From IMG/VR virus record IMGVR_UViG_3300046001_004161, positions 1 to 57,304 of that record: a stretch of DNA of 57,304 nucleotides, one strand, 5' to 3'. The translations under genes were made by a program, and so were the position numbers. Shown here piece after piece: positions 1 to 46,834 of the stretch. How positions within the stretch are numbered: the first letter of the stretch is position 1; every line of letters starts with the position of its first letter. Under the pieces are notes generated by a model. It did not search any database. It was not told the DNA's origin and saw only the letters and a list, made by a program, of their open reading frames with translations. This DNA is from a virus. Its lineage: Duplodnaviria > Caudoviricetes.

Positions 1-1
1 G

Positions 2-256
2 GACTTTAGTGTCCTCAAATCAACAGACGAGAAGAAGATATTCTTAGAACTGGCTGAATCTTGGTGGTGGGAAAGCAACAGGATCATACCTATCAACGTG
101 TTCCTAAAACAAGAATGGGTTATGTTCAGACCAACGCTTAAAACGTTTAACTCAAAAGACGTTGAGATTAAGTGCGGACCTTGCGTTAGCTTAAAAGAGA
201 TGGCACTCAGTAGATCTAAGCGCAGATCGATTACGTTAGTTCGCAGGATACTTTAA
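2..256 (+). CDS. 5'-truncated phage hypothetical protein (...LELAESWWWESNRIIPINVFL...RRIL*)
   Basis: Open frame 2 from the window edge to TAA at 254-256, read manually. Confidence 0.7.
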   Translation, partial: DFSVLKSTDEKKIFLELAESWWWESNRIIPINVFLKQEWVMFRPTLKTFNSKDVEIKCGPCVSLKEMALSRSKRRSITLVRRIL

Positions 257-484
257 CAGCAGCATAGTAAGAGTCTGGTCGTCGCATTCTACGTATTCAA
301 TAACGTTAGTAGGCCCGGTTGAAACTACGTCTATGCTCCATTCGTCACGCAGCCATTGGTAAAACTTGTCGTCATACAAATACATGCCCGCCTCTTTCTT
401 TAATTCTCGCAGAATGTGCGACCAAGAGACAGGGACATACCAGCCGCGCGCACCGGGTATCGGGTTAGTCAGGTAGTGTCTCAT
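236..484 (-). CDS. hypothetical protein
   Basis: ORF track; overlaps the end of the upstream - strand gene. Confidence 0.55.
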   Translation of the reverse strand: MRHYLTNPIPGARGWYVPVSWSHILRELKKEAGMYLYDDKFYQWLRDEWSIDVVSTGPTNVIEYVECDDQTLTMLLLKYPAN

Positions 485-1052
485 TGAGAAGATTCATGTT
501 TACTACAACTAAGTGTGAATAGGCACAGGCGTGCGCTTGTTTAAATGCGTAACTTCCATCAGTTGGTTTCTCCCAAATCGTCTTAGCTACCTCTGACCAA
601 GATTTTCCTATTAGGTGCTTCTTGCTGGGACGAATCATCGCAATGAACATCATTAAGCGAGGAATGCTATCAATGACATCAGGTAAGCTAGAAATAACAT
701 CGAAGTAATTACCGATGTGTATTAACTTCTCGCAGAACTCTTGCTCGTATAACTTCTCCCACGGCGGTTCAGTTGTCATTAAATGAACGAGATGCTCTTC
801 CGACTTTACTTGCTCATATACAGATACGTTGAGCACATCGACTTTAAAGTATCCGCGTTCTTCAGCTTCCTTATAGTCCAAGGTTGATCGCAGATTATGA
901 TCGTGCGGGATTTCTGTAAAGTACACGCCAGATGCGTGATTAGTTAGCTTTCCATCGTTTCGCAGTATGCTTGCGGAATAGTGTTTGAAAGGTGCTAACG
1001 CTATCTCGCGAGATGCTACGTCAATGTCGATGTCACTGTTAAACTTTGTCAT
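465..1052 (-). CDS. stand-alone DNA polymerase III alpha (DnaE)-like palm fragment
   Basis: SDIDID, HASGVY, GYFKVDVL and FKQAHACAY resemble DnaE motifs; only 195 aa. Confidence 0.75.
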   Translation of the reverse strand: MTKFNSDIDIDVASREIALAPFKHYSASILRNDGKLTNHASGVYFTEIPHDHNLRSTLDYKEAEERGYFKVDVLNVSVYEQVKSEEHLVHLMTTEPPWEKLYEQEFCEKLIHIGNYFDVISSLPDVIDSIPRLMMFIAMIRPSKKHLIGKSWSEVAKTIWEKPTDGSYAFKQAHACAYSHLVVVNMNLLNETLPD

Positions 1053-1102
1053 TATTTATGATAACATAGCTGATGAAGAATATCAAAATTTCTGGCAGAA
1101 TA

Positions 1103-1175
1103 GATAAATAGTAGTGCGGGTCGCGATACTGATAATATCCACCCACTCTAATCGCTTATAGGAGCAACCAGCATG
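1103..1175 (+). promoter_or_regulatory. late-type promoter (GATAAATA) plus conserved structured 62-nt leader, copy 1
   Basis: Same length and near-identical to 5113-5185; nested hairpins; SD GGAG within a stem. Confidence 0.75.
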
Positions 1176-1874
1176 TCTATTTATAGTATCTACAGAATAA
1201 CTAATCTTTTAACGAATAAAGTATATATCGGGTTTACTTCCGATCCAGAGCAACGATGGGCAAAACATTGTTCGTGCAGTAAAAGGAAATCTTCTAAACT
1301 ATTATACAACTCTATTCGCAAACACGGATTAGAAAATTTTACATTTGACATTATATACCAGTCTCGAGATTTAACGCATACTAAAAATATTATGGAGAAT
1401 TATTTTATCAACGAATATAATTCTTATGTTGGACATAAAAATTCCAATGGTTATAATATGACCTTAGGCGGAGACGGAGGAGACACCTCGTCTAGCCCAA
1501 AATATAAATCAGGAATAATAAGAAGAGGCAATAGTGACTGGAGGTTAAAGTGTAGCATAAGTAAGCTCGGTAGAAATTTAAGGCCACAAACAAAAGAACA
1601 TATACAAAACCGAGTTCTTTCTCGGTCCGGAAAACCTAACATAAAAAGACTAACTAAAGAGCAATGCGTAAACATGGCGCGGGATGGAGACACAAATGGA
1701 CATGCTAAACAATGGTGCTTTATGTCTCCATTTAATGAGAAATTTATCATCCAAGGACAATTTCAGCAATTCTGTAAAGAGCACGACTTAGAATATTCCG
1801 GAATGAAGAAAATAGCAAAAGGCGGCCAAGCTAAGAAAGGCAAAAACTTAGGATGGTCTGTATTTGAATTATAA
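1173..1874 (+). CDS. GIY-YIG homing endonuclease
   Basis: SIYRITN...VYIGFT...RW..H, GYNMTLGGDG; antisense to its neighbours. Confidence 0.9.
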   Translation: MSIYSIYRITNLLTNKVYIGFTSDPEQRWAKHCSCSKRKSSKLLYNSIRKHGLENFTFDIIYQSRDLTHTKNIMENYFINEYNSYVGHKNSNGYNMTLGGDGGDTSSSPKYKSGIIRRGNSDWRLKCSISKLGRNLRPQTKEHIQNRVLSRSGKPNIKRLTKEQCVNMARDGDTNGHAKQWCFMSPFNEKFIIQGQFQQFCKEHDLEYSGMKKIAKGGQAKKGKNLGWSVFEL

Positions 1875-2540
1875 ATTTGCCTCTAAACACACCTCCTTTA
1901 TATACTCGGCGTCTGCTACATAATCAGTAAATTTCTTCCCCCAGTAAACAGGATCTATAAAACGATAGGTTAAACTTACTTGTTCTTCATTTAACGCTTC
2001 AATAAAAGCCACGCCCGAAGAACTAAGGTAGATGATCCAAGGGCTAATGCGACCATTTACTACCATGTTACACACTTTGTTTGCTGCGCCTTCGCGGAAG
2101 ATGTTGTTAAAGCTCTTACCGTTCTCATCTGCCCAGCGTTGCATTTCCATAAACGATCGCTCTAACGCAACCGTAGGATGCTCTTTCCGTAGCTGTTCAT
2201 AAAGGTACTCGTCGTAGAAAGCCTCTTTTGTCCATTGGTCGAGCTTCTTGTTGTTCTTTAGCAAAGAGTTCGTAAAGCCAACTGGATCAATTGCTCGTAT
2301 CTGAACAAGGTATTGCCCATACTTTACAAACGCTGAATAATACGGCGATTCAACAAAATCACCATACGTCTTTGTCTTGCTGCTACCTTGTGTCATTGTG
2401 TAGAATTGTAGGTACGAGTTAAAGCCGAGTCGAACACCGGCTTCGTTCTCTTGCTGCCAGCGGCGACGAGGTTCACAGAGGTGGGCAGAAAGTGTACTTT
2501 CTTTTCGGAACTCTTTCTGACAATATTTACAGGTTGCCAC
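1869..2540 (-). CDS. hypothetical protein with N-terminal zinc finger
   Basis: CKYCQKEF...HLC. Confidence 0.75.
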   Translation of the reverse strand: MATCKYCQKEFRKESTLSAHLCEPRRRWQQENEAGVRLGFNSYLQFYTMTQGSSKTKTYGDFVESPYYSAFVKYGQYLVQIRAIDPVGFTNSLLKNNKKLDQWTKEAFYDEYLYEQLRKEHPTVALERSFMEMQRWADENGKSFNNIFREGAANKVCNMVVNGRISPWIIYLSSSGVAFIEALNEEQVSLTYRFIDPVYWGKKFTDYVADAEYIKEVCLEANL

Positions 2541-2547
2541 TTAGTTT

Positions 2548-3021
2548 TTAACCCAACTCTTTTTTAATCTGTTCCTTCGTCCATCCAAGTTCTTCAGCTA
2601 ACTTCTTTACATCTTTTGCGTCGTTTAACGAAGCCAACAGGTCTACATCGCTTTCCTTCATGTCAGGATATAAGGTAGCTAAAAATTTTTCAACTTTGGC
2701 TGTTGTTCCGCCTTCTTTCTTCTTCATACCAAGCCACGGATGATACTGCTTACCCATCCCCGGTGATATCGTAGTTGCTGCTAACCAGTTCAGTTTGTCG
2801 TGCTTAGTTTTATTGATGTCAAAGTAGTGTTTGTTTAGCCGCAAGTTAGTAGACTGTAGGTAATACTCTTGTAAGTCTGCGGAGCCTTGAACCGATGCTC
2901 CCCAGCGTATCATCAAGTATGAACTAAACTTTTTCTTTTCTTCGTCAGACAGATTATCGTAGAACTCACGATCCTTTCTGTCCAAAGCTAACATTTCATT
3001 GGCGATATCAAGCTTACTCAT
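2548..3021 (-). CDS. probable clamp-loader small subunit (T4 gp62-like)
   Basis: Start reassigned to MSKLDI; size, FSSYLMIRW...YHPWL and replication context resemble gp62-like proteins (recalled, not searched). Confidence 0.5.
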   Translation of the reverse strand: MSKLDIANEMLALDRKDREFYDNLSDEEKKKFSSYLMIRWGASVQGSADLQEYYLQSTNLRLNKHYFDINKTKHDKLNWLAATTISPGMGKQYHPWLGMKKKEGGTTAKVEKFLATLYPDMKESDVDLLASLNDAKDVKKLAEELGWTKEQIKKELG

Positions 3022-3108
3022 CACTCGTCCTTCATTACCGTCGGCTTCTAAGAAAGGTAAAAAATACACATAGATCCAGTAACTGGTCGTCGTTATATGG
3101 CATAATGT

Positions 3109-3612
3109 CTACCAGCACTTCCCGTAATCTACAATCTCACTTTGTCGGCTAATGTCTTTAACAAAGTACGCACAAAGAGGTTTACTCCCATGTTCAGTTA
3201 ACGGTACTGCTAACATTTGTCCTGGCTTCAGCTTTGGGAAATACCATTTAACATCTTGGTAGATGTCGATTACTTCAACTGGATAAAACACAGGGCTAAA
3301 TCCTGTAAGTGGATTAAAACAAAACACCTTAAATCCCCTGTCATTCACACTCGTCAGCGGCACAACCTCAAGGTCACCTAAGTCCGGCTCTCCGATTAGA
3401 ATCTGCCAGTCAATAGGCATGCGGATTACTTCGTCGCCTATACGCAATACAAGAGCAGGACTGTTAAAGCTCTCAAGGAAAATAAGCGGAATGTAAAAGT
3501 AGTCTGGCTCTTTCGGATTGCTGTTGTCAAGTACGCAGAAGCGTAAGTCATCTACCTCATCTGGTATCTCGTTCATTTCGTGCGCTTTGTTGTCAAGCGT
3601 AAGTATTCTCAT
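3109..3612 (-). CDS. hypothetical protein
   Basis: ORF coupled (ATGA overlap) to the helicase. Confidence 0.75.
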   Translation of the reverse strand: MRILTLDNKAHEMNEIPDEVDDLRFCVLDNSNPKEPDYFYIPLIFLESFNSPALVLRIGDEVIRMPIDWQILIGEPDLGDLEVVPLTSVNDRGFKVFCFNPLTGFSPVFYPVEVIDIYQDVKWYFPKLKPGQMLAVPLTEHGSKPLCAYFVKDISRQSEIVDYGKCW

Positions 3613-5087
3613 TTGGTTCCTTTAGTGACTGGTTCCCATTCTACCTTTTCGATTGTGTAAGGATAGTTGGCTTCTGTATAAAACTGTTTGCGTTTTGTTA
3701 AATGTCTCTTGGCAAATTTACAAGTCGAAGTGACGTCGTATATATCAACGAAGTCTTTGTCTTCTGCTTTACGAATACCCCGACCAATGCTTTGGATAAC
3801 CCGTACGAAAGACTTACCAGGCTCAATAAGCACAAGGTTAAAAATGCGAGGCACGTTGATGCCAACAGCAGCGATACCATACGTACATACAGTGACGCCG
3901 TTGTCATTAGTTGCGATACTGTCATACTGGTCCTTTCGTTTATCTGACTTAGTTGCCCCACTTAGGAAGACCGCTCCAGGAATACAGTTGACCAAGGCTT
4001 TACCTGGATCAACTCGGTCAATGAGGACTAAGGTGTTTCCTGTTGTGCTAATTTGCTGAATCAGCTTTGCCATGTAATAAAGGCGACCTTCTGTTTCCAA
4101 CAGATACTTTAGCTCGTCCGGATACTTCTTAAACTCTGCGTAATCGATCATCTGTACAATATTGACATGACAGTTCGACAAGATACCTTTGTCCTGTAGC
4201 TCGCTTGCTCTAACTGTTCCTACTACTTCACCCACTGATACTCTCAGCGAATACTTCTCAAAGTCTTCTTTCGGGATAGTTCCAGTAATACCTAAACGAA
4301 TAGGAATGCGAGACATAGGACCTGTCATCATACCGAGCAAAGCATCAGCTTTAAGCCCGTGGCACTCGTCAATCATTACGCATACAACACCGTCAATGAA
4401 TTCGCTGAATGGTACCTGTGCTTCTCCTGATTTAGTTTTCTTAAACATAGAGTTCAAGCTTTGCCAAGTACAAATAGTGTGCGTCTTATCGTATTCTTTT
4501 CGTGTGCCAAAGAATACACCAACATCTAACCCCATGTTTATGTAATCGGCTTCGGTCTGAAGAACTAAGTCTTTACTCGGAACGACTACAACTGTGCGAC
4601 CATAAGGCTCGAACTTGTGGCTAAGAACTGCTGTTAGGATCGTTTTACCGAAGCCAGTTGCCAGGCACTGAATGCTTTGCGTATTGTTTAGGAAGATGTT
4701 TATTGCTTCGACTTGGTCGTCGCGCAGCTCAATTGGTTGTCCGGCGAACCGGTGTCCTTCTGGCCATTTAATATGCGAGTAACTATCTTCTGCTACTTCG
4801 ACGAACTCAAACTGTGAACCGTAATCTCGCAAATCCTCAAGTTCGATGTTGTAACCTTCGCTATCAAGGATCGGCAAGATTTCCGGCAAGAGATTGATGT
4901 AGGTTTGCAGTGAAAGAGAACAAAAAGATTTTTTCCCGTCCCAGCGGCCCAATTTTACAGCTGGCGTATATCTAGCTCCGGGTATCTCAAACTTAAACTT
5001 GTTAGATAACTTTTTTCTAACAGCAAGGTCTACCCCTGTGATCTGACAATTTGTCTCTGACTCAATGATAATCTTACACGTTGCCAT
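3609..5087 (-). CDS. uvsW: SF2 DNA helicase, UvsW-like
   Basis: LATGFGKT, DECH, GITGT, QSIGRGIR motifs; about 490 aa. Confidence 0.85.
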   Translation of the reverse strand: MATCKIIIESETNCQITGVDLAVRKKLSNKFKFEIPGARYTPAVKLGRWDGKKSFCSLSLQTYINLLPEILPILDSEGYNIELEDLRDYGSQFEFVEVAEDSYSHIKWPEGHRFAGQPIELRDDQVEAINIFLNNTQSIQCLATGFGKTILTAVLSHKFEPYGRTVVVVPSKDLVLQTEADYINMGLDVGVFFGTRKEYDKTHTICTWQSLNSMFKKTKSGEAQVPFSEFIDGVVCVMIDECHGLKADALLGMMTGPMSRIPIRLGITGTIPKEDFEKYSLRVSVGEVVGTVRASELQDKGILSNCHVNIVQMIDYAEFKKYPDELKYLLETEGRLYYMAKLIQQISTTGNTLVLIDRVDPGKALVNCIPGAVFLSGATKSDKRKDQYDSIATNDNGVTVCTYGIAAVGINVPRIFNLVLIEPGKSFVRVIQSIGRGIRKAEDKDFVDIYDVTSTCKFAKRHLTKRKQFYTEANYPYTIEKVEWEPVTKGTK

Positions 5088-5112
5088 AATATCCTAAAAG
5101 TAAATGAAACGA

Positions 5113-5185
5113 GATAAATAATAGTGTCGATCGCGATACTGGACATATCCACCGACTCTAACGCTTTCAAGGAGCAATCAGCATG
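5113..5185 (+). promoter_or_regulatory. late-type promoter plus conserved structured leader, copy 2
   Basis: Repeat of 1103-1175 with a compensatory base-pair change. Confidence 0.75.
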
Positions 5186-5881
5186 ATATTTATCACTAAC
5201 AAATACACTATATGGTATAATAGCATCATAGCCAATGCTAAAGCAAGAACTTTGGTAGATGAATATACCGAACGACATCATATTATTCCTAAATCTTTAG
5301 GTGGCGATAATTCAAAAGAGAACTTGGTCAAACTTACTGCTCGTGAACACTTTATTTGCCATTGGCTACTTATTAAAATGATTTCAAATAAGGTCTTACT
5401 ACATAAAATGCAGTTTGCGTTAAATTCGTTTAGACGAACAAGTAAAAATCAACACCGACATATTCTTTCTTCAAGACAATATGAAACAGTTCGGAAACAA
5501 GTCTCGATCGCTCGCAGTCAATCTCAATTAGGAAACACGTTTGCATTAGGATTTAAGCAGTCACCGGAAACTATAGCTAAACGTGTTGCTAAGGTCACCG
5601 GAATGAAAAAGAAGAAGTGGAGTGCCGGACAGTGTAAACGTCTAAGTGACGCCACTAAAGGAAAGCCAAAACCTCTGGGGTTTGCTGAGCAAGTATCTGC
5701 TCGACGCAAAGGAATGCCAAGTCCGTTAAAAGGAAGAAAAGTGGGCCCGTACCCAGAAGAACGAAAACAAAAATTACGCATTCCTAAAAAGAAACTAACA
5801 TGTCCGCATTGTAATAAAGAAGGCGGGTCCAGTAATATGAAAAGATATCACTTTAACAACTGTAAATCACTCATCGTCTAG
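5183..5881 (+). CDS. HNH homing endonuclease
   Basis: ERHHIIPKSLGG...NLVKLTAREHFICHWLL; C-terminal CPHC. Confidence 0.9.
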   Translation: MIFITNKYTIWYNSIIANAKARTLVDEYTERHHIIPKSLGGDNSKENLVKLTAREHFICHWLLIKMISNKVLLHKMQFALNSFRRTSKNQHRHILSSRQYETVRKQVSIARSQSQLGNTFALGFKQSPETIAKRVAKVTGMKKKKWSAGQCKRLSDATKGKPKPLGFAEQVSARRKGMPSPLKGRKVGPYPEERKQKLRIPKKKLTCPHCNKEGGSSNMKRYHFNNCKSLIV

Positions 5882-6998
5882 GAAGTGGAGCACATAGATA
5901 CACTATCTTCTCCGCCTTATTCATAAAGTCCTTCTTTCCTACAGAGTGCATCAAATTCGCATAGCTAACCAGAAGCGGTAATCTACCTTCCCAGTCGGTT
6001 AGCACTTTATTAGTGTATATGACTTTAGCTGAATAGTCAATGGCTGATTCAGGTGTTTTGAGGTTTATGAGGCTAATCTCTGACGGATCAAAAAACTGCT
6101 CGTATAGAGTAGTATCTGGGGTCAGGAAATTCGGATTATAAACTACAATTGGCAACCTGTTCACCGCAATCGCCCATTCAACTACTTTGCCTACTGTGTA
6201 TTTATTCGCATCATTGGCGAAGTCGATTACTTTACCTTGACACAGCTTCAAAAATTCTGGACTCTCGTTTGCTTTGACAATTTCCGAGATCTCGTCACTT
6301 ATCGTGTATCCAAGCGGGCCAGCAGAGTCGATAAGAGCCATTGCGTTATCGAATCCGATGTTGGCCTCAATGTACTCTCGCATTGAGTCTGGTGCGTTTT
6401 CAATATACAGCTTTTTGTCGGCGCTGAATTTTAGCTGTATAGCAAACGGTGTCTTCTCGACTTCGAGAATTGCGTCAAACAACACCTGAACGTCTGGACT
6501 AACAAAAATGCGATTAGCATTAGAGTATCCTACTAACCAGCTAACGTTAAATTCTGTAATGGCAGAACACCAGGCCCGTTCATCTTGAGACCACTGGATA
6601 CTGCCTTGTGCTTCTTGAACAAAGGTCTTTACATCGTTGATCATCTTCTCGTTGAATGGGAATCGAAGCATAAGCTTGTCGTCTTTTCGCGTGAGGCTTG
6701 AGGAACGATCGACTACACGCTGACCAAGCTTATACAGCTTTTGGTCTGGTTGGTCGATGCCTTGCTTCGTTAACTGTCGGGCATAAGTGGCAATGATCTT
6801 TTCTGCCAGCGTCGCCTGTCTGTCAGTAAGACCTTTGCCTTGCTGTATTTGCTCGCTTACACTTGTTAGGAACCCAACGTCGTAGTTAGCGAGAGAAAGG
6901 GGAGACTTCGGCATAAAAGTCCAAGACTTTTTTCCGGCCTTGTCCATGTATCCGGACATGTATTCGAGGTACTCCTCGATGTATTGGAACTTAATCAT
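5871..6998 (-). CDS. hypothetical protein
   Basis: 375-aa ORF in the - strand run. Confidence 0.8.
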   Translation of the reverse strand: MIKFQYIEEYLEYMSGYMDKAGKKSWTFMPKSPLSLANYDVGFLTSVSEQIQQGKGLTDRQATLAEKIIATYARQLTKQGIDQPDQKLYKLGQRVVDRSSSLTRKDDKLMLRFPFNEKMINDVKTFVQEAQGSIQWSQDERAWCSAITEFNVSWLVGYSNANRIFVSPDVQVLFDAILEVEKTPFAIQLKFSADKKLYIENAPDSMREYIEANIGFDNAMALIDSAGPLGYTISDEISEIVKANESPEFLKLCQGKVIDFANDANKYTVGKVVEWAIAVNRLPIVVYNPNFLTPDTTLYEQFFDPSEISLINLKTPESAIDYSAKVIYTNKVLTDWEGRLPLLVSYANLMHSVGKKDFMNKAEKIVYLCAPLPRR

Positions 6999-11925: not shown

Positions 11926-11957
11926 TTATTTGCTCCGTTGCGTTATTCAATAAAGCT

Positions 11958-11985
11958 ATTATACAGCCTTTTAGGAAAAAGTCAA
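11958..11985 (-). promoter_or_regulatory. sigma70-type early promoter
   Basis: TTGACT-N16-TATAAT; AAAGGCTGTATAAT is shared with 54092 and 54186. Confidence 0.7.
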
Positions 11986-12165
11986 CCGTTTTCTGCCATT
12001 TTGTTCGCCAGTTCGTCGAGCTCAACTTCGACCAGTTCTTGCGTATGCTGGATGGAGCGTGTCACCGTGTCCATGCCGCCCAGGACGTCGCCTACCAAGT
12101 CTTGCGCATCGCGCAGCTTCCAGAGCGCCTGTTGCAGCTTCGAAATTCTGTCTCGCGTATTCATT
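11982..12165 (-). CDS. small hypothetical protein (start probably MNTRDR)
   Basis: TTGACT-N17-TATAAT at about 12199-12227 lies upstream. Confidence 0.55.
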
Positions 12166-30022: not shown

Positions 30023-30052
30023 AAAAGAAAGCCCACCGAAGCGGGCTTTCCT
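30023..30052 (-). terminator. intrinsic terminator after tmRNA
   Basis: GAAAGCCCGC-TTCG-GTGGGCTTTC-TTTT. Confidence 0.85.
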
Positions 30053-30366
30053 GATCGATTTGGTTACAAGGAGATCAATCCCCGTGGTGTTCGGTTATTA
30101 AGCGAACGCTGCCGAAGTTGCAGCAACTTTGGAACCGCCGAAACGGAAACCTTTAGCTACTGTTACTTTGACACCAGATGCAGATGTTTTTGCATTTGTA
30201 GTTTTTGTTATTTTAACGTCTTCCCTGACGATTCTCCGCTCGGCTACTTATTACTCAATCGAATCCATAATCGAGCCCATTAGTAAAAATACTACTTAAT
30301 ACTTTTACTGGTGGACTCGCCGGGGTTCGAACCCGGGTCTTGAGCACCTTTGACCTAACATCAACG
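30053..30366 (-). ncRNA. ssrA: permuted (two-piece) tmRNA
   Basis: T-arm + CGAGTCC-A-CCA (ends 30309) precedes GGGCTCGA..GGATTCGA (starts 30278); G3:U70; tag frame 30193-30098. Confidence 0.88.
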
Positions 30367-30376
30367 AATTCTTTAC

Positions 30377-39439: not shown

Positions 39440-39551
39440 TTTGTTTCTCCTTTGTTTTGTATCTACTTCGACGTTCGAGGTCTACGCGGGGAATCCGCAT
39501 AAAGTCATACTGTCAATAGTATTTAGCCTCTAAACAAAGAATACTGCTATT

Positions 39552-39622
39552 TGGTACCCACGGAAGGAGTCGAACCTTCATAAACTGGTTTAGGAAACCT
39601 GTTTCCGTCCATCGGCGTGGAT
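39552..39622 (-). tRNA. tRNA-Arg(CCT)
   Basis: Loop TTCCTAA, CCA, short D-arm. Confidence 0.75.
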
Positions 39623-39626
39623 GTAA

Positions 39627-39797
39627 TTACTGGCCGCCACCTTTTAGTGCTTTAGCGTCTAGACACTCTTTAAGGTTAGGCTCTTTCTTGCACTTTTCTT
39701 CAAATGCTACTGCCTCTTTCTGTGGTTCTGTTAACTGATTACAGCCAACTGCAAATAACATTGTTGCTGCTAGTACTGCGGATAACGATAACTTCAT
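39627..39797 (-). CDS. 56-aa lipoprotein (possible exclusion lipoprotein)
   Basis: MKLSLSAVLAATMLFAVGC lipobox, C...C pair, SD AGGAG. Confidence 0.7.
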   Translation of the reverse strand: MKLSLSAVLAATMLFAVGCNQLTEPQKEAVAFEEKCKKEPNLKECLDAKALKGGGQ

Positions 39798-39855
39798 TTT
39801 TGAATCTCCTTTAATTTGTTTACTACTTATTCGCTCTTTAAAGCCTCAAAATTTT

Positions 39856-39932
39856 TGGTACCCGAGGCCGGATTCGAACCGGCAACCACTTACTTTTAAG
39901 GCAAGCCGTACTACCAATTATCGCACACGGGC
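39856..39932 (-). tRNA. tRNA-Leu(TAA), short variable loop
   Basis: Loop CTTAAAA, CCA. Confidence 0.85.
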
Positions 39933-39937
39933 ATTTA

Positions 39938-40063
39938 CAGGATAGCGCCTTTCGGCTTTTTGACTAGTGACTGAACCAATTCGTCTACGTTTAGCAAATT
40001 GCTAACCGACGGGACTCGAACCCGCATACCCCCAGTTTATTTTTAGTTGCTGTAACTATCCTA
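39938..40063 (-). ncRNA. UAG-stem/CAGCA module RNA enclosing a circularly permuted tRNA (YrlA-like)
   Basis: TAGGATAG-TTACAGCAA, T-arm, loop-closed acceptor, D-arm, CTATCCTG. Confidence 0.75.
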
Positions 40064-40069
40064 AATTTA

Positions 40070-40672
40070 TTACTCGCCGAACTGTTCCCAGTTGTTGCTA
40101 AACTTAGCCTTCAACTTGGCAATATAGTCCTGCGTTTTGATCTTTACCATGTAGTCATCGCCCTTGGCAACAACACCTTCATCTAACTGTTGGTATCGTC
40201 CCATTCTCACATCGCGAATAAACTCTGCTGTAAGATCACCTTCGTATATCACTTCTGCGCACTCGGCCATGTCACCGAATGTTTCTAGAAATTGGCGCGG
40301 CCTCATACGACCTTGCTTATACAGAAATACATCAATTAGCTTTAGTTCTTTAGGATCGCCAAGTACATGGCCTCCTGCGAAACTCTGCGCACCAAAGTAC
40401 TCAGTGAATACTGTAATGCGCTGCGGCTGTTTGACGAGTTGTTTGACACGATATTCGATCTCTTCTGCCATCTTGTCTTTAAACAAAGGGATAGCGTCTG
40501 CGAACTGCGAATCGTTTTCGTCAAACAAATGATTACGTGTTCCGTACTTAGTCCATCCTTGCTTCGGAGAATACTCCCAGCGTAGGTTAGAACCGTCATA
40601 CTTGAAAAAGGCGATACATGATTTCCTCAGAGGAGATCTTTTGCTCCCCGGAATGCTTGGGTATTGCAACAT
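40070..40672 (-). CDS. ATP-dependent RNA ligase-like nucleotidyltransferase
   Basis: KYDGSNLR, TEYFG, LIDV, EGVVAK, VKIK. Confidence 0.8.
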   Translation of the reverse strand: MLQYPSIPGSKRSPLRKSCIAFFKYDGSNLRWEYSPKQGWTKYGTRNHLFDENDSQFADAIPLFKDKMAEEIEYRVKQLVKQPQRITVFTEYFGAQSFAGGHVLGDPKELKLIDVFLYKQGRMRPRQFLETFGDMAECAEVIYEGDLTAEFIRDVRMGRYQQLDEGVVAKGDDYMVKIKTQDYIAKLKAKFSNNWEQFGE

Positions 40673-40798
40673 ACTTTAGTCCTTTATGTTAGGTCGAGCT
40701 AGAGCCAGACCAAAAGGCCTGGGCTCTTAAGTTGTGTATGATACCGATAAGCGTGAAAATACAGTCATGATGTGTTTCTCCTTTTTAGTTATAATAGT

Positions 40799-40870
40799 TG
40801 GTAGTGATCCCGGGTGTCGAGCCCGGTAGGTCAGCCTTATGAGAGCTAACTGTCTGCCGAGACGATCACT
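40799..40870 (-). tRNA. tRNA(CAT), Met or Ile2
   Basis: Loop CTCATAA, CCA. Confidence 0.75.
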
Positions 40871-40879
40871 ATTTGTTTC

Positions 40880-40954
40880 TGGAGTCAGCGGTAGGTATCG
40901 AGCCTACATCTTCGGTTTTGCAGACCGAGGCCCATCCATTTAGACCACGCCGAC
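40880..40954 (-). tRNA. tRNA-Cys(GCA)
   Basis: Loop CTGCAAA, U73, CCA. Confidence 0.9.
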
Positions 40955-40959
40955 ATGTT

Positions 40960-41035
40960 TGGCTTCCCATGACGGTGACGATCCGCCTCCTGCGGTTTTG
41001 GAGACCGCCGTTCTGCCAACTTGAACTAATGGGAA
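40960..41035 (-). tRNA. tRNA-Trp(CCA)
   Basis: Loop CTCCAAA; D-stem GTTC/GAAC. Confidence 0.9.
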
Positions 41036-41044
41036 ATTTGTTGC

Positions 41045-41118
41045 TGGTGCTCTTACCTGGAATCGAACCAGGGTTACATCCGTACCAAGGATGCGTAATA
41101 CCACTATACTATGAGAGC
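41045..41118 (-). tRNA. tRNA-Thr(GGT)
   Basis: Loop TTGGTAC, CCA. Confidence 0.9.
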
Positions 41119-41233
41119 AAAATCTTTACATACGAATCGAGCGTATCATCACCCAACTTCATGGCCTACCTTGCAATGGTCGACATATGCTCGGTTATCG
41201 GTGTTCCATTGTAGTGACAGTAAAGATAAAATT

Positions 41234-41322
41234 TGGCGGAGATGGTAGGATTCGAACCTACGGGCCGAATAAACGACCACTGCTTTCCAAGCAGCTCCAA
41301 TGGGCCTCTCTGGCACATCTCC
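41234..41322 (-). tRNA. tRNA-Ser(GGA)
   Basis: Long V-arm, G73. Confidence 0.9.
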
Positions 41323-41329
41323 AATTGTT

Positions 41330-41404
41330 TGGTAGTCCATGACGGATTCGAGCCGCCTTCTGTGCGATGTCGACGCACTGTTCTAACCAGTGAACTAATG
41401 GACT
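41330..41404 (-). tRNA. tRNA-Val(GAC)
   Basis: Loop TCGACAT; nt 8-10 form the endonuclease stop codon. Confidence 0.8.
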
Positions 41405-42030
41405 AATGTTCTGCGACCTTTCCTCCAACCGTCAGGAATAGGATCAATTTTTTTTATCTTCTTGCTTTCTATTTCATTCGTAATCCATATTGTTCCTGAT
41501 TGCGAATTTTTGTCACCTTGTTGATGACCAATTTCTTTGTATGTATTAATACGCTTTAATTTGGTAGACTCCGAATTCGCTTCAATTCTACCGTTTGTAT
41601 TCCAAGACAACCGTGTCTCATACGACACTTTTTCAAATCTGTTTTTGTGTATCTTGTGCCAATCTAAACTTTTCCTTGCAATTTCTGCTTTTTCTCGATC
41701 TAGATCGTTCCACCCAACTTTCCTGGTTGACAAGTTATTAGAGTTAATGTAATCGAACCCACCAAATCCACCTCGACGTAAATTATACACATCTTCTCTC
41801 AATAGAAACTCATCTGTTACCACTTCTTTTTCACGAGCGAACATAGCAGCCGAATCATCGAACTGCTCAAGTATCGTCTTCGTAAAGTTTTCGATCCCGT
41901 ACTTCTTCATTGCGGATCGAATGACTTTTCCAGAGCCCATATAACCATCGTCCATAGACTTGGTCTTATGCACTCCTACGTAAATTTTGCCATTCAGATT
42001 GTTTCTGATTTCATACAAGTAATAGAACAT
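41395..42030 (-). CDS. Seg-like GIY-YIG homing endonuclease (start MFYYLYE)
   Basis: YLYEIRNNLNGKIYVGVH...GYMGSG; SD AAGGAGG; CATAAATA upstream. Confidence 0.9.
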   Translation of the reverse strand: MFYYLYEIRNNLNGKIYVGVHKTKSMDDGYMGSGKVIRSAMKKYGIENFTKTILEQFDDSAAMFAREKEVVTDEFLLREDVYNLRRGGFGGFDYINSNNLSTRKVGWNDLDREKAEIARKSLDWHKIHKNRFEKVSYETRLSWNTNGRIEANSESTKLKRINTYKEIGHQQGDKNSQSGTIWITNEIESKKIKKIDPIPDGWRKGRRTLVH

Positions 42031-42072
42031 AATGTCCTCCTTACAAGTATTTATGCAAAATCTACTCTTGTG

Positions 42073-42154
42073 AGGAGAATAATGGACTCGAACCATTGCC
42101 CTTTCGGACAGGCCAGCTTTCGAAACTAGTTAATGCCCAGCACACCTACCTTCC
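42073..42154 (-). tRNA. tRNA-Ser(CGA), 3' end altered and no CCA
   Basis: Loop TTCGAAA, V-arm; abuts the endonuclease leader. Confidence 0.65.
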
Positions 42155-42236
42155 AAATTCTGTCTGCTTACGATTATGCAGCACTAGTATTGATGCTCAG
42201 TGACCACCGTTGGGTGGTTTAGCTCTAGTCGATTTC

Positions 42237-42327
42237 TGGCGGAAGTGGGCGGATTCGAACCCCCTAACCCCTTTCAGGGTCAAACAGCTTTCAAGGCTGT
42301 GTCGCGCTCCGAGACGATAGCACTTCC
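42237..42327 (-). tRNA. tRNA-Ser(TGA)
   Basis: Loop CTTGAAA, V-arm. Confidence 0.85.
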
Positions 42328-42332
42328 ATTGT

Positions 42333-42503
42333 TTATTTCAAGGCCGCAATTTCTGCCTTTAGTTTCTTGATTCGTTCAGTTAATGTTGGAACACTAACTT
42401 CTGCCGCACCGTGTTTCTTTTTGGTTAAAGCATTTAGCAATTCTGCCTCAGAAGCAGCGAGTTGTTCTTGCAATCGAATCTTCTTCTTTTCAACTTTACT
42501 CAT
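42333..42503 (-). CDS. 56-aa basic coiled-coil protein (MSKVEKKK...)
   Basis: SD AAGGAG; not in the ORF track. Confidence 0.65.
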   Translation of the reverse strand: MSKVEKKKIRLQEQLAASEAELLNALTKKKHGAAEVSVPTLTERIKKLKAEIAALK

Positions 42504-42522
42504 CTCTGCTCCTTTCTATGTT

Positions 42523-42598
42523 TGGTCCCTCCCGTTGGTTACGCTCCAACCTCTACGGATTTTCAGTCCGTCGCTTTCACTAGATTAGCTTGAGAGGG
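42523..42598 (-). tRNA. tRNA-Phe(GAA)
   Basis: Loop CTGAAAA; atypical T-loop. Confidence 0.8.
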
Positions 42599-42781
42599 AA
42601 TGTTCTTTGACAGACAATCATCATAAACGTACTCCGCCTGTCAGGGAGAGTGTTTATTGTTTCGCTGATAGTCTGGTAATTACTCCGTCCTATCGTCACC
42701 ATCCAAATCGTCGCTATGATCACTCACGATAGACCTCGGTGGCCATCCGTACCTTAAGGGGTCGTGACGGAAACAAATATT

Positions 42782-42855
42782 TGGCTGTCTAGTGAGGACT
42801 CGCACCTCTATCCACCCTTGCGCTGGGGTATGCTGATCTCTTACACTACTAGACA
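42782..42855 (-). tRNA. tRNA with atypical 8-nt anticodon loop (CAGCGCAA)
   Basis: Perfect acceptor stem, D/T arms and CCA; no U33. Confidence 0.65.
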
Positions 42856-42861
42856 ATTGTT

Positions 42862-42936
42862 TGGAAGCCCTGGGTGGAATTGAACCACCTTACCTGCTTT
42901 CAAAGAGCAGTATCTGATCCAGTCGATTTCAAGGCT
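42862..42936 (-). tRNA. tRNA-Gln(TTG)
   Basis: Loop CTTTGAA, CCA. Confidence 0.75.
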
Positions 42937-42943
42937 ATATTCT

Positions 42944-43017
42944 TGGCAGGGGAGTACGGGATCGAACCGTAACTTGAAGAGTCAGAGTCTTCTGTACTGC
43001 CATTATACTACTCCCCA
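42944..43017 (-). tRNA. tRNA-Gln(CTG)
   Basis: Loop CTCTGAC. Confidence 0.9.
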
Positions 43018-43120
43018 ACATTGTTCGTACAGCTAGGAGCGACCCTATATACCCAAGTCGGATCAAAGAGGTCTCGCTACTCTCATATGATCACTTTGGC
43101 TCTGGTACATTTGCTGTGTT

Positions 43121-43194
43121 TGGTGGGGGCACTGAGAATCGGACTCAGGTTGACTGGTTAAAAGCCAGATGTCCTACCACTGGACGATACCCCC
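43121..43194 (-). tRNA. tRNA-Lys(TTT)
   Basis: Loop CTTTTAA. Confidence 0.85.
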
Positions 43195-43199
43195 AAATT

Positions 43200-43445
43200 T
43201 TATTCTTTCGGAAATCTGAGTTCCGTTGTTCTACGCTTTGTCCAGTTGTAATCTGGGCCAGTTACATCAACACCTGGCTTACCTACGCTGTTTGGGTTCT
43301 CAGACACCATTGTCACGAAACGAACACCTTCTTCGTTGCGTAGTGACTCGCACTTGTTTAGCGCGGTCTTTAAGTCATGCACGATAGCCGCACACGGCCA
43401 ATGGTCATCATCTGGAAGAACTCTCGTCCAGTATACACAATACAT
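43200..43445 (-). CDS. hypothetical protein
   Basis: FVTMVSENPNSVGKPGVD...YNWTKRR. Confidence 0.7.
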   Translation of the reverse strand: MYCVYWTRVLPDDDHWPCAAIVHDLKTALNKCESLRNEEGVRFVTMVSENPNSVGKPGVDVTGPDYNWTKRRTTELRFPKE

Positions 43446-43464
43446 TATTATCTCTTTTCATTAG

Positions 43465-43656
43465 TTATACATCTGTTGGTTTCTTAGGAGTCCATACTCC
43501 CACTTTTTCACATGACGTTGTAATTGGTTTCTCTGCTTCTACTTGTGCCAATGCTGCCTGACATTCTTGTTCTGAATTAAAGAACACACTCATAAAAATA
43601 TAATCAGGTATTGCCGGCGATGTCATTGCTATAACCCAGGCTACAATAAAATTCAT
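43465..43656 (-). CDS. small secreted/membrane protein
   Basis: SD AAGGAG; F.SEQECQAA. Confidence 0.65.
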   Translation of the reverse strand: MNFIVAWVIAMTSPAIPDYIFMSVFFNSEQECQAALAQVEAEKPITTSCEKVGVWTPKKPTDV

Positions 43657-43700
43657 GTCGTGCTCCTTTAGATAAAGTATTTAACCTAAAGGAGCGAATT

Positions 43701-43774
43701 TGGTGCGGGTACTAGGAATCGAACCTAGGTGGACTGGGTAAGAGCCAGCTATTCTACCATTGAACTACACCCGC
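43701..43774 (-). tRNA. tRNA-Lys(CTT)
   Basis: Loop CTCTTAC. Confidence 0.85.
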
Positions 43775-43924
43775 TTAGAGCTTGCGACGCGTTGTATGAA
43801 GTGATACAAGGATAAGTCTGGCAGTCTTAGTGCCTGCGACTAGATTCAGTATCTAGCGGGTTGATTCGTCTTATGCTTCTACTGCGCAACTCTTCTCTCA
43901 CTAGAGACATCCACGCAGCACCTA

Positions 43925-44149
43925 TTACTTCATATTGTCAAGTTCGTCATTCTTTAACCACGGAAACTCTTTAGTAAAGAGCTCTGGCCTAGAAAGTACA
44001 AACCACCACAAACGAATATGATTGATTCTGTTGCTGCTATCCATTGGGTCTTTCTTACCTTTAACGAAAACAAACACTATAGTTACCAAACCTATTAGTG
44101 TCGCAAACGAACCCGATAGTAATAACAGAAACAAAAAAATATCTAGCAT
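43925..44149 (-). CDS. membrane protein (start MLDIFLF)
   Basis: TM helix plus SSNRINHIRLWWF. Confidence 0.65.
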   Translation of the reverse strand: MLDIFLFLLLLSGSFATLIGLVTIVFVFVKGKKDPMDSSNRINHIRLWWFVLSRPELFTKEFPWLKNDELDNMK

Positions 44150-44178
44150 ACTCGTCCTTGGTATTCTTGGTACTTGTT

Positions 44179-44252
44179 TGGTGGAGGTGGAGAGAATCGA
44201 ACTCTCACGAAAAGCTTGCAAAGCTTCCAGGCTCCCATTACATCACACCCCC
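44179..44252 (-). tRNA. tRNA-Ala(TGC)
   Basis: G3:U70, loop TTTGCAA. Confidence 0.9.
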
Positions 44253-44275
44253 AAATTTAAATCTGCTACTTGTTC

Positions 44276-44349
44276 TGGAGCGGCATGTCAGAATCGAACT
44301 GACGTCATCAGCTTGGAAGGCTGTCATAATACCATTATACTAATGCCGC
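44276..44349 (-). tRNA. tRNA-Gly(TCC)
   Basis: Loop CTTCCAA, U73. Confidence 0.9.
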
Positions 44350-44393
44350 GTTAAATTTATTTATCTGCTGTAAATCTGCTGCTAATAAAACTT

Positions 44394-44488
44394 TGGTAGT
44401 CCCCGAGGGTATCGAACCCTCCCGTCACCGCCTATCTAGCAGTTCTCACAAGTTTATAAAACTCGTCCGCTTCCCAGAGCTGAGGACC
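44394..44488 (-). tRNA. tRNA-Ile(TAT) with long variable arm
   Basis: Loop TTTATAA; about 26-nt V region. Confidence 0.75.
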
Positions 44489-44494
44489 ATATGT

Positions 44495-44570
44495 TACGAT
44501 GGAGCGTGGAATCGAACCACATCAATGCTATCGACTTATGAGTTAAGCACATCGATTTGCCGCTCCCATC
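44495..44570 (-). ncRNA. degenerate tRNA-like element (CAT loop, no CCA)
   Basis: GATGGGAGC/GCTCCATC, CTCATAA, GTGG-TTCGATT-CCAC. Confidence 0.45.
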
Positions 44571-44614
44571 GCTGGCCAGCTGCGCTATCATTGACTACCA
44601 TAAACCCCAAAGCT

Positions 44615-44686
44615 TGGCCTCCACGGAGAGAATCGAACTCCCACAAGCAAGGGTAGAAACCTCGCCGCTGCTCCATCAGCGTGGAG
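44615..44686 (-). tRNA. tRNA-Arg(TCT)
   Basis: Loop TTTCTAC. Confidence 0.8.
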
Positions 44687-44693
44687 AATAATT

Positions 44694-44769
44694 TGGTACC
44701 CAGGGTCAGACTCGAACTGACATACTCCCACTTGTAAGGAGGGCGCTAGAACCTCTCAGCTACCCGGGC
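44694..44769 (-). tRNA. tRNA-Val(TAC)
   Basis: Loop CTTACAA. Confidence 0.85.
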
Positions 44770-44776
44770 ATTATTC

Positions 44777-44864
44777 TGGAGCGACCTGAGAGAATCGAAC
44801 TCTCATCTGGGCTTTCGCCACGCTAGTTTGGAAGACTAGTGCCCAACCATTAGGCCAAGGCCGC
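44777..44864 (-). tRNA. tRNA-Gly(TCC) with long variable arm
   Basis: Loop CTTCCAA; GGC-GAAA-GCC V-arm; U73. Confidence 0.85.
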
Positions 44865-44874
44865 ATTTGTAAAA

Positions 44875-44935
44875 CAGGATACACATTGGTTTTTCAATTA
44901 AAAGTTGAATTTTGTAAGGTGCTGTAGGTATCCTA
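44875..44935 (-). ncRNA. UAG-stem/CAGCA module RNA enclosing a Lys(UUU)-like anticodon stem-loop
   Basis: TAGGATAC-CTACAGCA...TTCAA-CTTTTAA-TTGAA...GTATCCTG. Confidence 0.7.
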
Positions 44936-45094
44936 AAACTTAAATTCTTGCTCTGCCGTCCGTCTCGGCTCTAGATCGAAAGCTGATCGCCCTTCTGGAT
45001 GAGTTCCTAGCAGTCATATACTAACCTGCACATAAGTAGGCTCACGTTAATGCCAGTCAGTCCCAAGTGCCCGCTGGTCCGGTTTCTAAGTAAC

Positions 45095-45168
45095 TGGTCC
45101 CCGGTGCCGGAATCGAACCGTTCCTTTTCGTTCGAAGCGAAAGATGCATCCAATACACCTCACCGGAG
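45095..45168 (-). tRNA. tRNA-Arg(TCG)
   Basis: Loop CTTCGAA. Confidence 0.8.
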
Positions 45169-45169
45169 A

Positions 45170-45376
45170 TTATTTCTTGGCAGACAGTTTATTCAACGCC
45201 TCAATTAATTCAGCAATCGAAGCAGGATGAACAACATCTTTGTATTTTACTTTAAACTTATCGTGCGGCAATTTCTTAGGATCAGTTGTAGCAGGGAAGC
45301 CGTTCAGCATGGCCATCCACATGTTTAGCTTTTCTATCTCCTCTACTAACTTATCTAAGTTAGGAATGCCTAACAT
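45170..45376 (-). CDS. hypothetical protein
   Basis: ORF track. Confidence 0.55.
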   Translation of the reverse strand: MLGIPNLDKLVEEIEKLNMWMAMLNGFPATTDPKKLPHDKFKVKYKDVVHPASIAELIEALNKLSAKK

Positions 45377-45377
45377 G

Positions 45378-45737: not shown

Positions 45738-45773
45738 TTAATTCTCCAGTTATCATGATATTTATTCTAAGCT

Positions 45774-45847
45774 TGGAGCCCTATGTAGGAATCGAACCCA
45801 CGTATCCTGATTACAAAACAGGCAGTCTACCATTGAAATAATAGGGC
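45774..45847 (-). tRNA. tRNA-Thr(TGT)
   Basis: Loop TTTGTAA. Confidence 0.85.
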
Positions 45848-45853
45848 GTTGTT

Positions 45854-45941: not shown

Positions 45942-45951
45942 ATAAATTGTT

Positions 45952-46681: not shown

Positions 46682-46713
46682 TCCCTTTTAATTGGTATAT
46701 GTTTATTTATATA

Positions 46714-46831: not shown

Positions 46832-46834
46832 TTC

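Follow-up and report, generated by a model that had tools for sequence, protein, structure and literature searches.

A portable leader cassette of phage homing endonuclease genes whose fold is selected on the antisense strand and which may specify a cis-antisense RNA

Among the selfish elements of large phages, free-standing homing endonuclease genes are the most common, and to our knowledge the ways in which they spare their carrier from harm have been described in a handful of T-even cases, each with a sense hairpin of its own. RNA-OUT (IS10) and art200 (IS200) are cis-antisense RNAs initiated at an outward promoter just inside the transposase gene, and the promoter-early stem-loop (PeSL) elements are mobile regulatory cassettes of T4-type phages. 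Here we describe a leader cassette of ~80 nt that heads a GIY-YIG and an HNH homing endonuclease gene in an uncultured giant lake phage, represented by the IMG/VR virus record IMGVR_UViG_3300046001_004161 (Duplodnaviria; Caudoviricetes), the whole contig of which (57,304 bp, by estimate ~11% of a genome) is the window of this study, and we present evidence that the cassette is folded in RNA of the strand opposite to the nuclease genes. In the T-even phages and Aeh1, the homing endonuclease genes (I-TevI, I-TevII, I-TevIII, segB and mobE) possess late promoters and hairpins that sequester the ribosome-binding site, and T4 endonuclease genes have promoters embedded in them (PMC2988022, in the part available to us). 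Dassa et al. (2009; PMC2677866, likewise available in part) reported on free-standing GIY-YIG and Vsr-like endonuclease genes at fractured-gene loci of ocean and Lake Gatun metagenomes, where hairpins were found in 15 of 16 endonuclease 5' untranslated regions (UTRs) and the late-promoter element TATAAATA in 10, the stem contains a pairing of two conserved, complementary motifs, and one locus had kept its hairpin after loss of the nuclease gene; these hairpins were read as sense translational attenuators. In cyanophage S-PM2, Millard et al. (2010; as described in the available part of PMC2984593) observed CfrI, an RNA of ~225 nt that lies antisense to psbA and to a homing endonuclease gene.

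Within the window the box GATAAATA stands at 1103-1110 and at 5113-5120, in both cases with exactly 62 nt between it and an ATG (1173 and 5183), and the two leaders (1103-1175 and 5113-5185) are 83% identical over 74 nt (E 2.4e-15), being the only matches to each other within the record. The box was counted 8 times in the window against 2.38 expected, a number reached in 0 of 100 shuffles. An earlier note on this DNA had already remarked on the common leader and its fixed spacing, and had described in both copies a CGC bulge, a GATA/TATC hairpin and a GCT..GGAGC hairpin over the Shine-Dalgarno (SD) sequence, as well as a G-C to C-G swap in the outer stem; both copies do contain a TCGCG/CCACC segment with two bulged C, the GATA/TATC helix and the GCT/AGC hairpin over the SD, and the swap is confirmed (G1118-C1144 in copy 1 and C5128-G5154 in copy 2). 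Its assignment of the genes at 1173 and 5183 to the GIY-YIG and HNH classes is borne out by Pfam and PHROG matches, and their orientation antisense to the replication genes by the flanking open reading frames (ORFs), all of which lie on the minus strand and include a UvsW-like helicase. The features of the two copies are listed below (for the hairpins, the strand is the one on which the fold is best supported; lengths of proteins are in amino acids, aa).

1103-1110, plus strand: outer TAAATA box of copy 1 (GATAAATA), resembling a T4-type late promoter and facing the GIY-YIG gene
1104-1172, minus strand: predicted cis-antisense RNA of copy 1, ~69 nt, from the G opposite C1172 to the U-rich tail
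1116-1146, minus strand: hairpin 1 of copy 1 (outer stem 1116-1121/1141-1146, inner helix 1125-1128/1136-1139, loop 1129-1135; in its middle the conserved TCGCG/CCACC segment with two bulges)
1148-1171, minus strand: hairpin 2 of copy 1 (outer pairs CUA/CAG, inner stem GCT 1154-1156/AGC 1163-1165; the SD of the sense strand, AGGAG at 1160-1164, lies within it)
1173-1874, plus strand: GIY-YIG homing endonuclease gene, 233 aa (Pfam E 1e-9; PHROG homing endonuclease 4.4e-35)
1178-1183, minus strand: inverted inner box of copy 1 (TATTTA on plus, TAAATA on minus) in GIY-YIG codons 2-4, a candidate promoter of the antisense RNA
5113-5120, plus strand: outer TAAATA box of copy 2 (GATAAATA)
5114-5182, minus strand: predicted cis-antisense RNA of copy 2
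5126-5156, minus strand: hairpin 1 of copy 2 (outer stem 5126-5131/5151-5156, loop 5139-5145)
5158-5181, minus strand: hairpin 2 of copy 2 (outer pairs CUA/CAG; the sense SD AGGAG inside)
5183-5881, plus strand: HNH homing endonuclease gene, 232 aa (Pfam 1.5e-5; PHROG homing endonuclease 7.3e-51)
5187-5192, minus strand: inverted inner box of copy 2 (TATTTA on plus) in HNH codons 2-4, in a reading frame that differs from that of copy 1

The cassette was searched for in viral contigs with two patterns, the first of which (the hairpin core, with 19 specified bases) retrieved 61 viral-contig loci and the second (with inner helix and loop left free) at least 116 stretches; combined, they amounted to at least 148 instances with at least 97 unique 105-nt leaders. 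A profile search of the fetched loci with nhmmer added 10 divergent copies (a match at L124:5584-5611, E 0.25, was dropped as noise), and a covariance-model and nhmmer follow-up added 5 further divergent ones; applied to five whole records (a complete 524-kb and a complete 198-kb genome among them), the covariance model located 2, 2, 2, 6 and 2 copies. By these means more than 110 distinct copies were recovered from contigs of uncultured lake phages, and the genomes of the carrier phages range from ~200 kb to 524 kb. No match to the leader of copy 2 was returned by blastn from 50,697 deposited phage records, and the genomes of 185,579 prokaryote species gave a single cassette match, situated on a 1.8-kb contig of a metagenome-assembled genome, which we take to be a mis-binned piece of phage.

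An ORF of at least 100 aa follows the cassette in 102 of 106 unique copies, the four exceptions being L042, in which the contig end cuts the ORF, L036 and L043, in which the gene has decayed behind a surviving leader, and L092, with an ORF of 45 aa. The first of the decayed copies (L036:9735-9900) has an intact leader before a nuclease ORF that stops after 7 codons, and the second (L043:3100-3257) retains the box, hairpin 1 and half of hairpin 2, beyond which the neighbouring gene begins directly. The only Pfam families that recur among 103 downstream ORFs are nuclease-type or nuclease-associated (NUMOD3 35, HNH 15, HNH_5 9, SegE_GIY-YIG 8, GIY-YIG 6, HNH_3 5 and DUF7487 2), and many divergent GIY-YIG-like N-termini fall below the Pfam thresholds. 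Overall, the genes headed by the cassette belong to several GIY-YIG subfamilies or to the HNH class, the latter with two or more architectures, and other ORFs are found behind it as well. The covariance-model search and inventory of downstream genes that had been suggested as a check on the earlier proposal gave a motif that both covaries and stands at the head of nuclease genes.

The consensus of 105 copies is composed, in order, of an (N)ATAAATA box, 5 nt (AAAGU), hairpin 1, UCUAA, hairpin 2, CAGC(A), the start codon and TAYTTA (the inner box, 4-5 nt past CAGC), and the conserved block ends sharply at the two inverted boxes. The outer box was present at its expected position in 31 of the 34 unique copies retrieved by a pattern that did not specify it. 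Hairpin 1 is built from a variable outer stem of 6 bp, the conserved UCGCG/CCACC segment with two bulged C, an inner helix of 4 bp and a loop of 5-7 nt, and hairpin 2 from the conserved outer pairs CUA/CAG and a variable inner stem of 3-5 bp, the SD being placed in its loop and 3' arm. Covariation was observed at pairs 22/50 (CG 44, UA 33, AU 26) and 31/43 (AU 75, GC 28) of hairpin 1 and at pair 59/81 of hairpin 2 (GC 61, AU 29); changes on both sides affect 8 of the 12 hairpin-1 pairs (in the sense alignment and likewise in antisense orientation), and the covariation score of hairpin 1 is 0.385, as compared to 0.125 in shuffled alignments (0 of 500 reached the observed value) and 0.03-0.10 in slid controls. 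Furthermore, the divergent copies flip pairs that the patterns had fixed (T-A at 25/47, A-T and C-G at 24/48, C-G at 26/46). These data show that both hairpins are maintained by compensatory changes. The top of the hairpin was found in both orientations (CTGGTAA/TTACCAG and GATGTTGGAAGCATC/GATGCTACCAACATC), which is a small inversion that exchanges loops between the strands. A pseudoknot between a CTG in the loop and the CAG before the ATG, raised as a possibility in the earlier note, finds no backing in this collection, since 53 of 105 copies lack the loop CTG yet keep CAGY and the loop/CAG pairing does not covary; the CAG pairs instead with CUA at the foot of hairpin 2.

The pattern of tolerated substitutions differs between the strands. 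In the sense strand G.U variants are absent from all hairpin-1 pairs, and A.C cells number 64 at pair 25/47, 13 at 24/48, 3 at 23/49, 2 at 22/50 and 1 each at 28/45 and 31/43, every sense A.C being a G.U on the antisense strand. Read in antisense orientation (41 representatives of less than 86% identity, L036, L043, L077 and L106 having been excluded before clustering and L013, L066, L088 and L025:5213-5308, out of 45 representatives, before alignment), 97.2% of the hairpin-1 cells pair. Over all cells the paired share is 95.1%, as compared to 84.7% for shuffled sequences, of which 0 of 500 attained the observed value; in hairpin 2, G.U occupies the third pair in 41/41. Hairpin 2 was aligned sequence by sequence on a strand-neutral purine-pyrimidine basis (column-wise counts of its inner stem were dropped, since MAFFT misplaces indels there), and the 77 unique segments gave 486 Watson-Crick cells, 132 sense A.C, 8 mismatches and 36 sense G.U, the last of these located for the most part near the loop. 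At pair 25/47 we counted 19 stem backgrounds with A.C and 16 with G-C, and because 6 backgrounds are common to both, the position must have toggled repeatedly. Folding energies point in the same direction: the mean minimum free energy (MFE) is -20.6 kcal/mol for the antisense and -14.6 kcal/mol for the sense strand (antisense lower in 77 of 80), the mean z against dinucleotide shuffles is -1.7 versus -0.3 to -0.5, values below -2 were obtained for 33-38 of 103 antisense versus 4-6 of 103 sense sequences, and RNAalifold returned -13.2 versus -5.0. Taken alone, both window leaders fold in the sense strand no better than shuffles (z +0.42 to -0.93), and in the antisense strand copy 1 reaches z -2.19 and copy 2 z -0.06 (not better than shuffles).

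By crude ORF calling, 63 of 97 unique copies have an upstream neighbour encoded on the opposite strand and 31 one on the same strand, and the remaining 3 have none. Folding is more stable for the antisense strand in 62/62 copies with an opposite-strand and in 31/31 with a same-strand neighbour, and A.C at 25/47 is found in 40/63 and 21/31 of them, respectively. As the bias is equal in both orientations it is independent of read-through from the host genes, which makes a transcript of the cassette's own more likely than a leader or processing site of the host gene. Wobble pattern and folding energies together show that selection acts on the fold of the antisense-strand RNA, with the caveat that a possible outer pair (18/54) carries 33 sense G.U; this pair is located upstream of the presumed mRNA start and exhibits no compensatory change. 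The earlier idea of a portable expression-control RNA is therefore retained in part: the element is portable, travels with different nucleases and has covarying stems, but a structured leader on the sense strand is unsupported, the fold being selected on the other one. Rfam, proposed at the same time as a check, offered no family for it, a scan of the whole window at gathering thresholds giving no match over 1040-1200 or 5100-5200 and Rfam 15 in E-value mode over 1040-1200 reaching at best 6.8-14.4 bits against thresholds of 36-150; likewise, nothing in the analysis suggests a ribozyme.

The second line of evidence concerns the inner box, which is the reverse complement of the outer one. TA(T/C)TTA is present in 99 of 106 copies, its first base being exactly 9 nt past that of CAGY in 80 of them and 8 nt past it in 9 (copy 2 of the window included). 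The offset of the box from the start codon varies (of the 80 copies, 57 have it at 5 nt, 15 at 3 nt and 7 at 4 nt), so that the proteins begin with M-x-I-Y, M-Y-L-H or M-I-F-I, and because the box is kept across three reading frames we conclude that it is conserved as nucleotides. T4 late promoters start transcription ~6 nt after their box. In the window, TAAATA sites are found 35 times on the minus (coding) strand and 10 times on the plus strand, and many precede an SD and ATG by 15-35 nt, which makes it plausible that TAAATA serves here as a general promoter box, and a homologue of T4 gp55 is encoded in both complete cassette-bearing genomes (E 3.9e-18 and 4.4e-5).

We consider, with about even confidence, that the best explanation for these observations is a pair of facing late-type promoters giving rise to a cis-antisense RNA of ~70 nt that restrains the nuclease mRNA. 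According to this model, the outer and inner boxes would both be late-type (gp55-like) promoters; the outer one would initiate the nuclease mRNA at the first base of hairpin 1, and the inner one, lying in the first codons, would initiate the antisense RNA at the G opposite CAGC, i.e. the first base of hairpin 2' (primes denote the antisense strand). The resulting RNA would begin with hairpin 2' and continue through hairpin 1', which contains two bulged G, into a U-rich tail ACUUUUAUUUAU, complementary to the outer box, in which its end probably lies (in copy 1 the complement of the outer box, UAUUUAUC, would form such a tail past the antisense hairpin). With full complementarity to the leader of the mRNA, its SD and its start codon, the antisense RNA would repress translation or provoke cleavage of the nuclease message, comparable to the effect of RNA-OUT on the IS10 transposase, and the cassette would act as a self-contained, orientation-independent dosage control that moves with the nuclease gene. 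Bulged stems and loops of 5-7 nt are typical of antisense RNAs, and the loop inversion, which leaves the sense/antisense RNA pair unchanged, can be counted in favor of this model.

The likeness to RNA-OUT and art200 extends to predicted promoters that face each other across a few tens of bp where the nuclease-type gene of a mobile element begins, and to a predicted small, stable stem-loop RNA with bulged stems, complementary to SD and start codon; a conserved stable stem-loop of the antisense strand overlapping SD and start codon is indeed what we observed. The differences are that the promoters would be of the phage late type and not sigma-70, that the gene is a homing endonuclease gene in a lytic phage, and that the antisense transcript is a predicted one. 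With CfrI the cassette shares an antisense RNA (seen experimentally there, predicted here) over a homing endonuclease gene of a T4-like phage; going by its description, CfrI differs in being longer, in tying the nuclease gene to psbA and in not having been presented as a portable cassette. PeSL elements resemble it as repeated promoter and stem-loop modules bordering mobile gene cassettes in T4-type genomes, with the distinction that they use early, sigma-70-type promoters and accompany many kinds of small ORFs, whereas the present cassette has late-type boxes and is tied to nuclease genes. Our literature search found no description of an antisense-folding cassette with two facing late promoters at homing endonuclease genes, and the main text of a 2023 catalogue of viral structured RNAs (PMC10690425, in its available part) contains no such motif, homing endonucleases appearing there in a reference only.

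Several points weigh against the antisense-RNA model. The RNA itself is so far a deduction from DNA: the matching RNA contigs are unstranded and without ends. These stem from four freshwater metatranscriptome runs of one study (10-21% of sampled words), and are 100% identical over both nuclease genes and their flanks (for example 1130-1395, 5177-5362 and 4912-5082), where carry-over of DNA is possible, and 5083-5176 is bridged by none of them. Since TCGCG and CCACC were fixed in both search patterns, C-to-T (G.U) variants at these positions could not be recovered, and the unbiased evidence for the strand call is smaller, consisting of the freely varying pairs (6 A.C versus 0 G.U) and of the 15 divergent copies found without patterns, in which A.C is present (three at 28/45) and G.U is not. 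Moreover, related sequences do not amount to independent events; the TACTTA variant of the inner box (20 of 80 copies, the other 60 having TATTTA) reads TAAGTA on the antisense strand and may be a poor promoter, and it would fit a G.U in a helix between the two boxes; a simple terminator scan gave no flag for hairpin 1', the U-tract being interrupted and beginning 2 nt past the stem; and how the RNA would act, be it by blocking translation, by RNase III cleavage or by promoter interference, is purely conjectural.

An extension of the model, which we put forward tentatively, is that the antisense RNA of one copy also pairs with leaders belonging to further copies, whether these reside in the same genome or in a co-infecting one, and so acts as a family-wide, copy-number-dependent brake, akin to the multicopy inhibition of IS10 or to a type I antitoxin. 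Such pairing is conceivable given the conservation of the cassette core across unrelated nuclease genes and across phages, and the variable outer stem and the loop would then decide which copies cross-talk.

Among the alternatives, a sense-strand mask of the T4 kind ranks first, yet we judge it unlikely. In this scheme a helix of the outer box (AUAAAUA) with the inner one (UAUUUAU), just past the AUG, would close a three-way junction that hides SD and start codon in read-through transcripts, and transcripts from the outer late promoter, devoid of the 5' arm, would be translatable, like those of I-TevI, segB and mobE. The scheme has the T4 paradigm behind it (PMC2988022, in part), SD and AUG do fall inside the junction, the helix between the boxes appears in the sense MFE structure of 50 of 80 copies, and sense read-through can be expected for the 31 of 97 copies that follow a co-oriented ORF, often by 8 nt or less (the TAAATA box lies a median of 8 nt past its stop codon or overlaps it by 3-7 nt). 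These upstream ORFs are often long (~773-783 aa; for example at L004, L008-L010, L012, L014, L017, L051 and L061), and the layout resembles the published 'fractured gene' arrangement. The sense folds, however, are no more stable than shuffles (mean z as given above), the conserved A.C mismatches weaken every sense helix, TACTTA interrupts a 6-bp A-U helix with a central mismatch, and the helix between the boxes is devoid of any pair changed on both sides; furthermore, the upstream neighbour is divergent in 63 of 97 copies and at both loci of the window, so that no sense read-through is expected there.

The comparison with T-even phages and Aeh1 leads to a similar outcome. Common to both are a late promoter of the TATAAATA type directly upstream of the homing endonuclease gene (a putative one here, judged by the (N)ATAAATA box 62 nt before the ATG and by the gp55 homologues), RNA structure around the SD, and the logic that a potentially harmful nuclease is kept low or late. 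In T4, however, each gene has its own hairpin that acts on sense read-through, whereas here one cassette is common to many unrelated nuclease genes, most copies (again those with an opposite-strand neighbour, both window copies included) do not lie within a longer sense transcript, the sense fold equals that of shuffles and the selected fold is antisense. Similar hairpins were given a sense-strand interpretation by Dassa et al. (PMC2677866, in part), and the features they list, i.e. a hairpin before the start codon, the TATAAATA element and TCGCG(A/G)UA pairing with UA(U/C)CCACC, are found here as well, as is the position directly behind a long co-oriented ORF (31 of 97 copies). On this comparison of motifs by description, the cassette is very probably the same element as the 2009 hairpins or a sister of it; the available part of that paper makes no mention of an inverted inner box, an antisense wobble pattern or an antisense RNA.

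In each case the cassette and its nuclease gene sit antisense between genes of the opposite strand, as follows.

1053-1868, no strand assigned: insertion 1, cassette and GIY-YIG gene, 816 nt, between ORF 465-1052 (minus) and ORF 1869-2540 (minus)
5088-5870, no strand assigned: insertion 2, cassette and HNH gene, 783 nt, between the helicase 3609-5087 (minus) and ORF 5871-6998 (minus)

In 80 loci with relatives of the helicase, a homologue of ORF 5871-6998 (ORF375) ends 0-42 nt before the helicase start in 21, 171 nt before it in 3 and 809 nt before it in 1, and was undetected in 55; no cassette was found in these 80 loci. Similarly, the distance between homologues of ORF 1869-2540 (ORF223) and ORF 465-1052 (ORF195) is at most 12 nt in 10 loci, ~230 nt in 27 and 0.9-1.4 kb in 6. 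As the flanking genes abut in relatives (empty sites), each insertion is a unit of cassette plus nuclease gene placed antisense between otherwise abutting genes. The six loci with the widest spacing (L175, L176, L183, L189, L190 and L209) are without this cassette, and other inserts appear to use the same ORF223-ORF195 intergenic site.

This architecture invites the reading that the inner box is an outward promoter restoring expression of the interrupted host gene (the helicase or ORF195), the antisense hairpins being a stabilising 5' leader or a processing site. Each insertion splits its partners by ~0.8 kb of antisense DNA, the inner box is the nearest minus-strand TAAATA upstream of the helicase gene (at 99 nt), and T4 endonuclease genes embed promoters for downstream genes (PMC2988022, in part); we nevertheless find it improbable, since the inner box is kept equally where it is not needed (25/31 copies with a co-oriented versus 48/63 with an opposite-strand neighbour), the antisense-fold bias is likewise equal (31/31 versus 62/62), and hairpin and U-rich tail would impede read-out into the host gene. 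The same hairpin and tail could form an antisense terminator or insulator and nothing else, in which hairpin 1' and the U-rich tail would stop transcription arriving from the nuclease gene or beyond and no dedicated antisense RNA gene would exist. A stable G+C-based antisense stem followed by ACUUUUAUUUAU speaks for such a role, yet it would leave hairpin 2', the invariant CAGC and the fixed-distance inner box unexplained, would in the window sever the helicase and ORF195 genes from upstream transcription, and was not flagged by the terminator scan; its likelihood is accordingly very low. Lowest of all do we place an element acting as DNA (a patch of homology for cassette swaps by recombination, or a hairpin of single-stranded minus-strand DNA during repair or replication), for although the sharp block ends at two inverted boxes, the inversion of the hairpin top (a DNA event typical of inverted repeats) and the leader remnants that outlast the gene (L036 and L043, and gp41-7 in the available part of PMC2677866) would suit it, homology alone does not give compensatory changes in three helices, no protein that reads DNA hairpins is linked to the cassette and the downstream nucleases come from unrelated families.

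In the phages studied here a single portable module is common to several GIY-YIG lineages, HNH genes and other ORFs, and its regulator is apparently encoded on the opposite strand. Should the antisense-RNA model prove true, antisense control would join the known modes of homing endonuclease regulation, the landing of these genes in either orientation between tightly packed essential genes would be explained, phage engineering would gain a compact switch built from late promoters and an antisense RNA, and the hairpins taken in 2009 as sense attenuators would have to be read anew.

The surroundings of the two loci form a minus-strand gene array (236-6998), broken by the two plus-strand nuclease genes and comprising a 195-aa ORF, three conserved function-unassigned ORFs, the helicase and a 375-aa ORF. 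The UvsW-like helicase (3609-5087, minus), part of a replication module, is ~48-53% identical to its counterparts in jumbo phages such as Sinorhizobium phage Phosso, Agrobacterium phage Atu_ph07 and Pseudomonas phage PA5oct, and megablast of window positions 1-6000 against the deposited phage records mentioned above returned no match. Over its full length the 195-aa ORF (465-1052, minus) matches a 197-position 'DNA polymerase' PHROG (E 6.8e-56); it may be one piece of a split polymerase, and the GIY-YIG insertion lies directly upstream of it. A sigma-70-like promoter match (1058-1086, minus: TTGATA, 17 nt, TATCAT, with TG; 10/12) sits between this ORF and the cassette, just upstream of the ORF.

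Elsewhere in the window, an Rfam tmRNA_permuted match (30152-30369, minus, 85.2 bits against a gathering threshold of 47) suggests a phage-borne two-piece tmRNA gene, and an isrB match beside it (30026-30091, minus) is marginal (35.6 versus 35 bits). The 38 Rfam tRNA matches clustered at 39500-53300 all lie on the minus strand and account for most direct-repeat families in the window. Within this region a 300-nt direct repeat of 83% identity was found (41732-42031 and 51194-51493), and near each of its copies (at 42053 and 51515) there is a promoter-like/SD stretch, TGCATAAATA...GTAAGGAGG. Finally, a 52-nt repeat family of three copies (11952-12003, 54086-54137 and 54180-54231), with ATTATACAGCCTTTT...GTCAAC in common, may represent a regulatory site.

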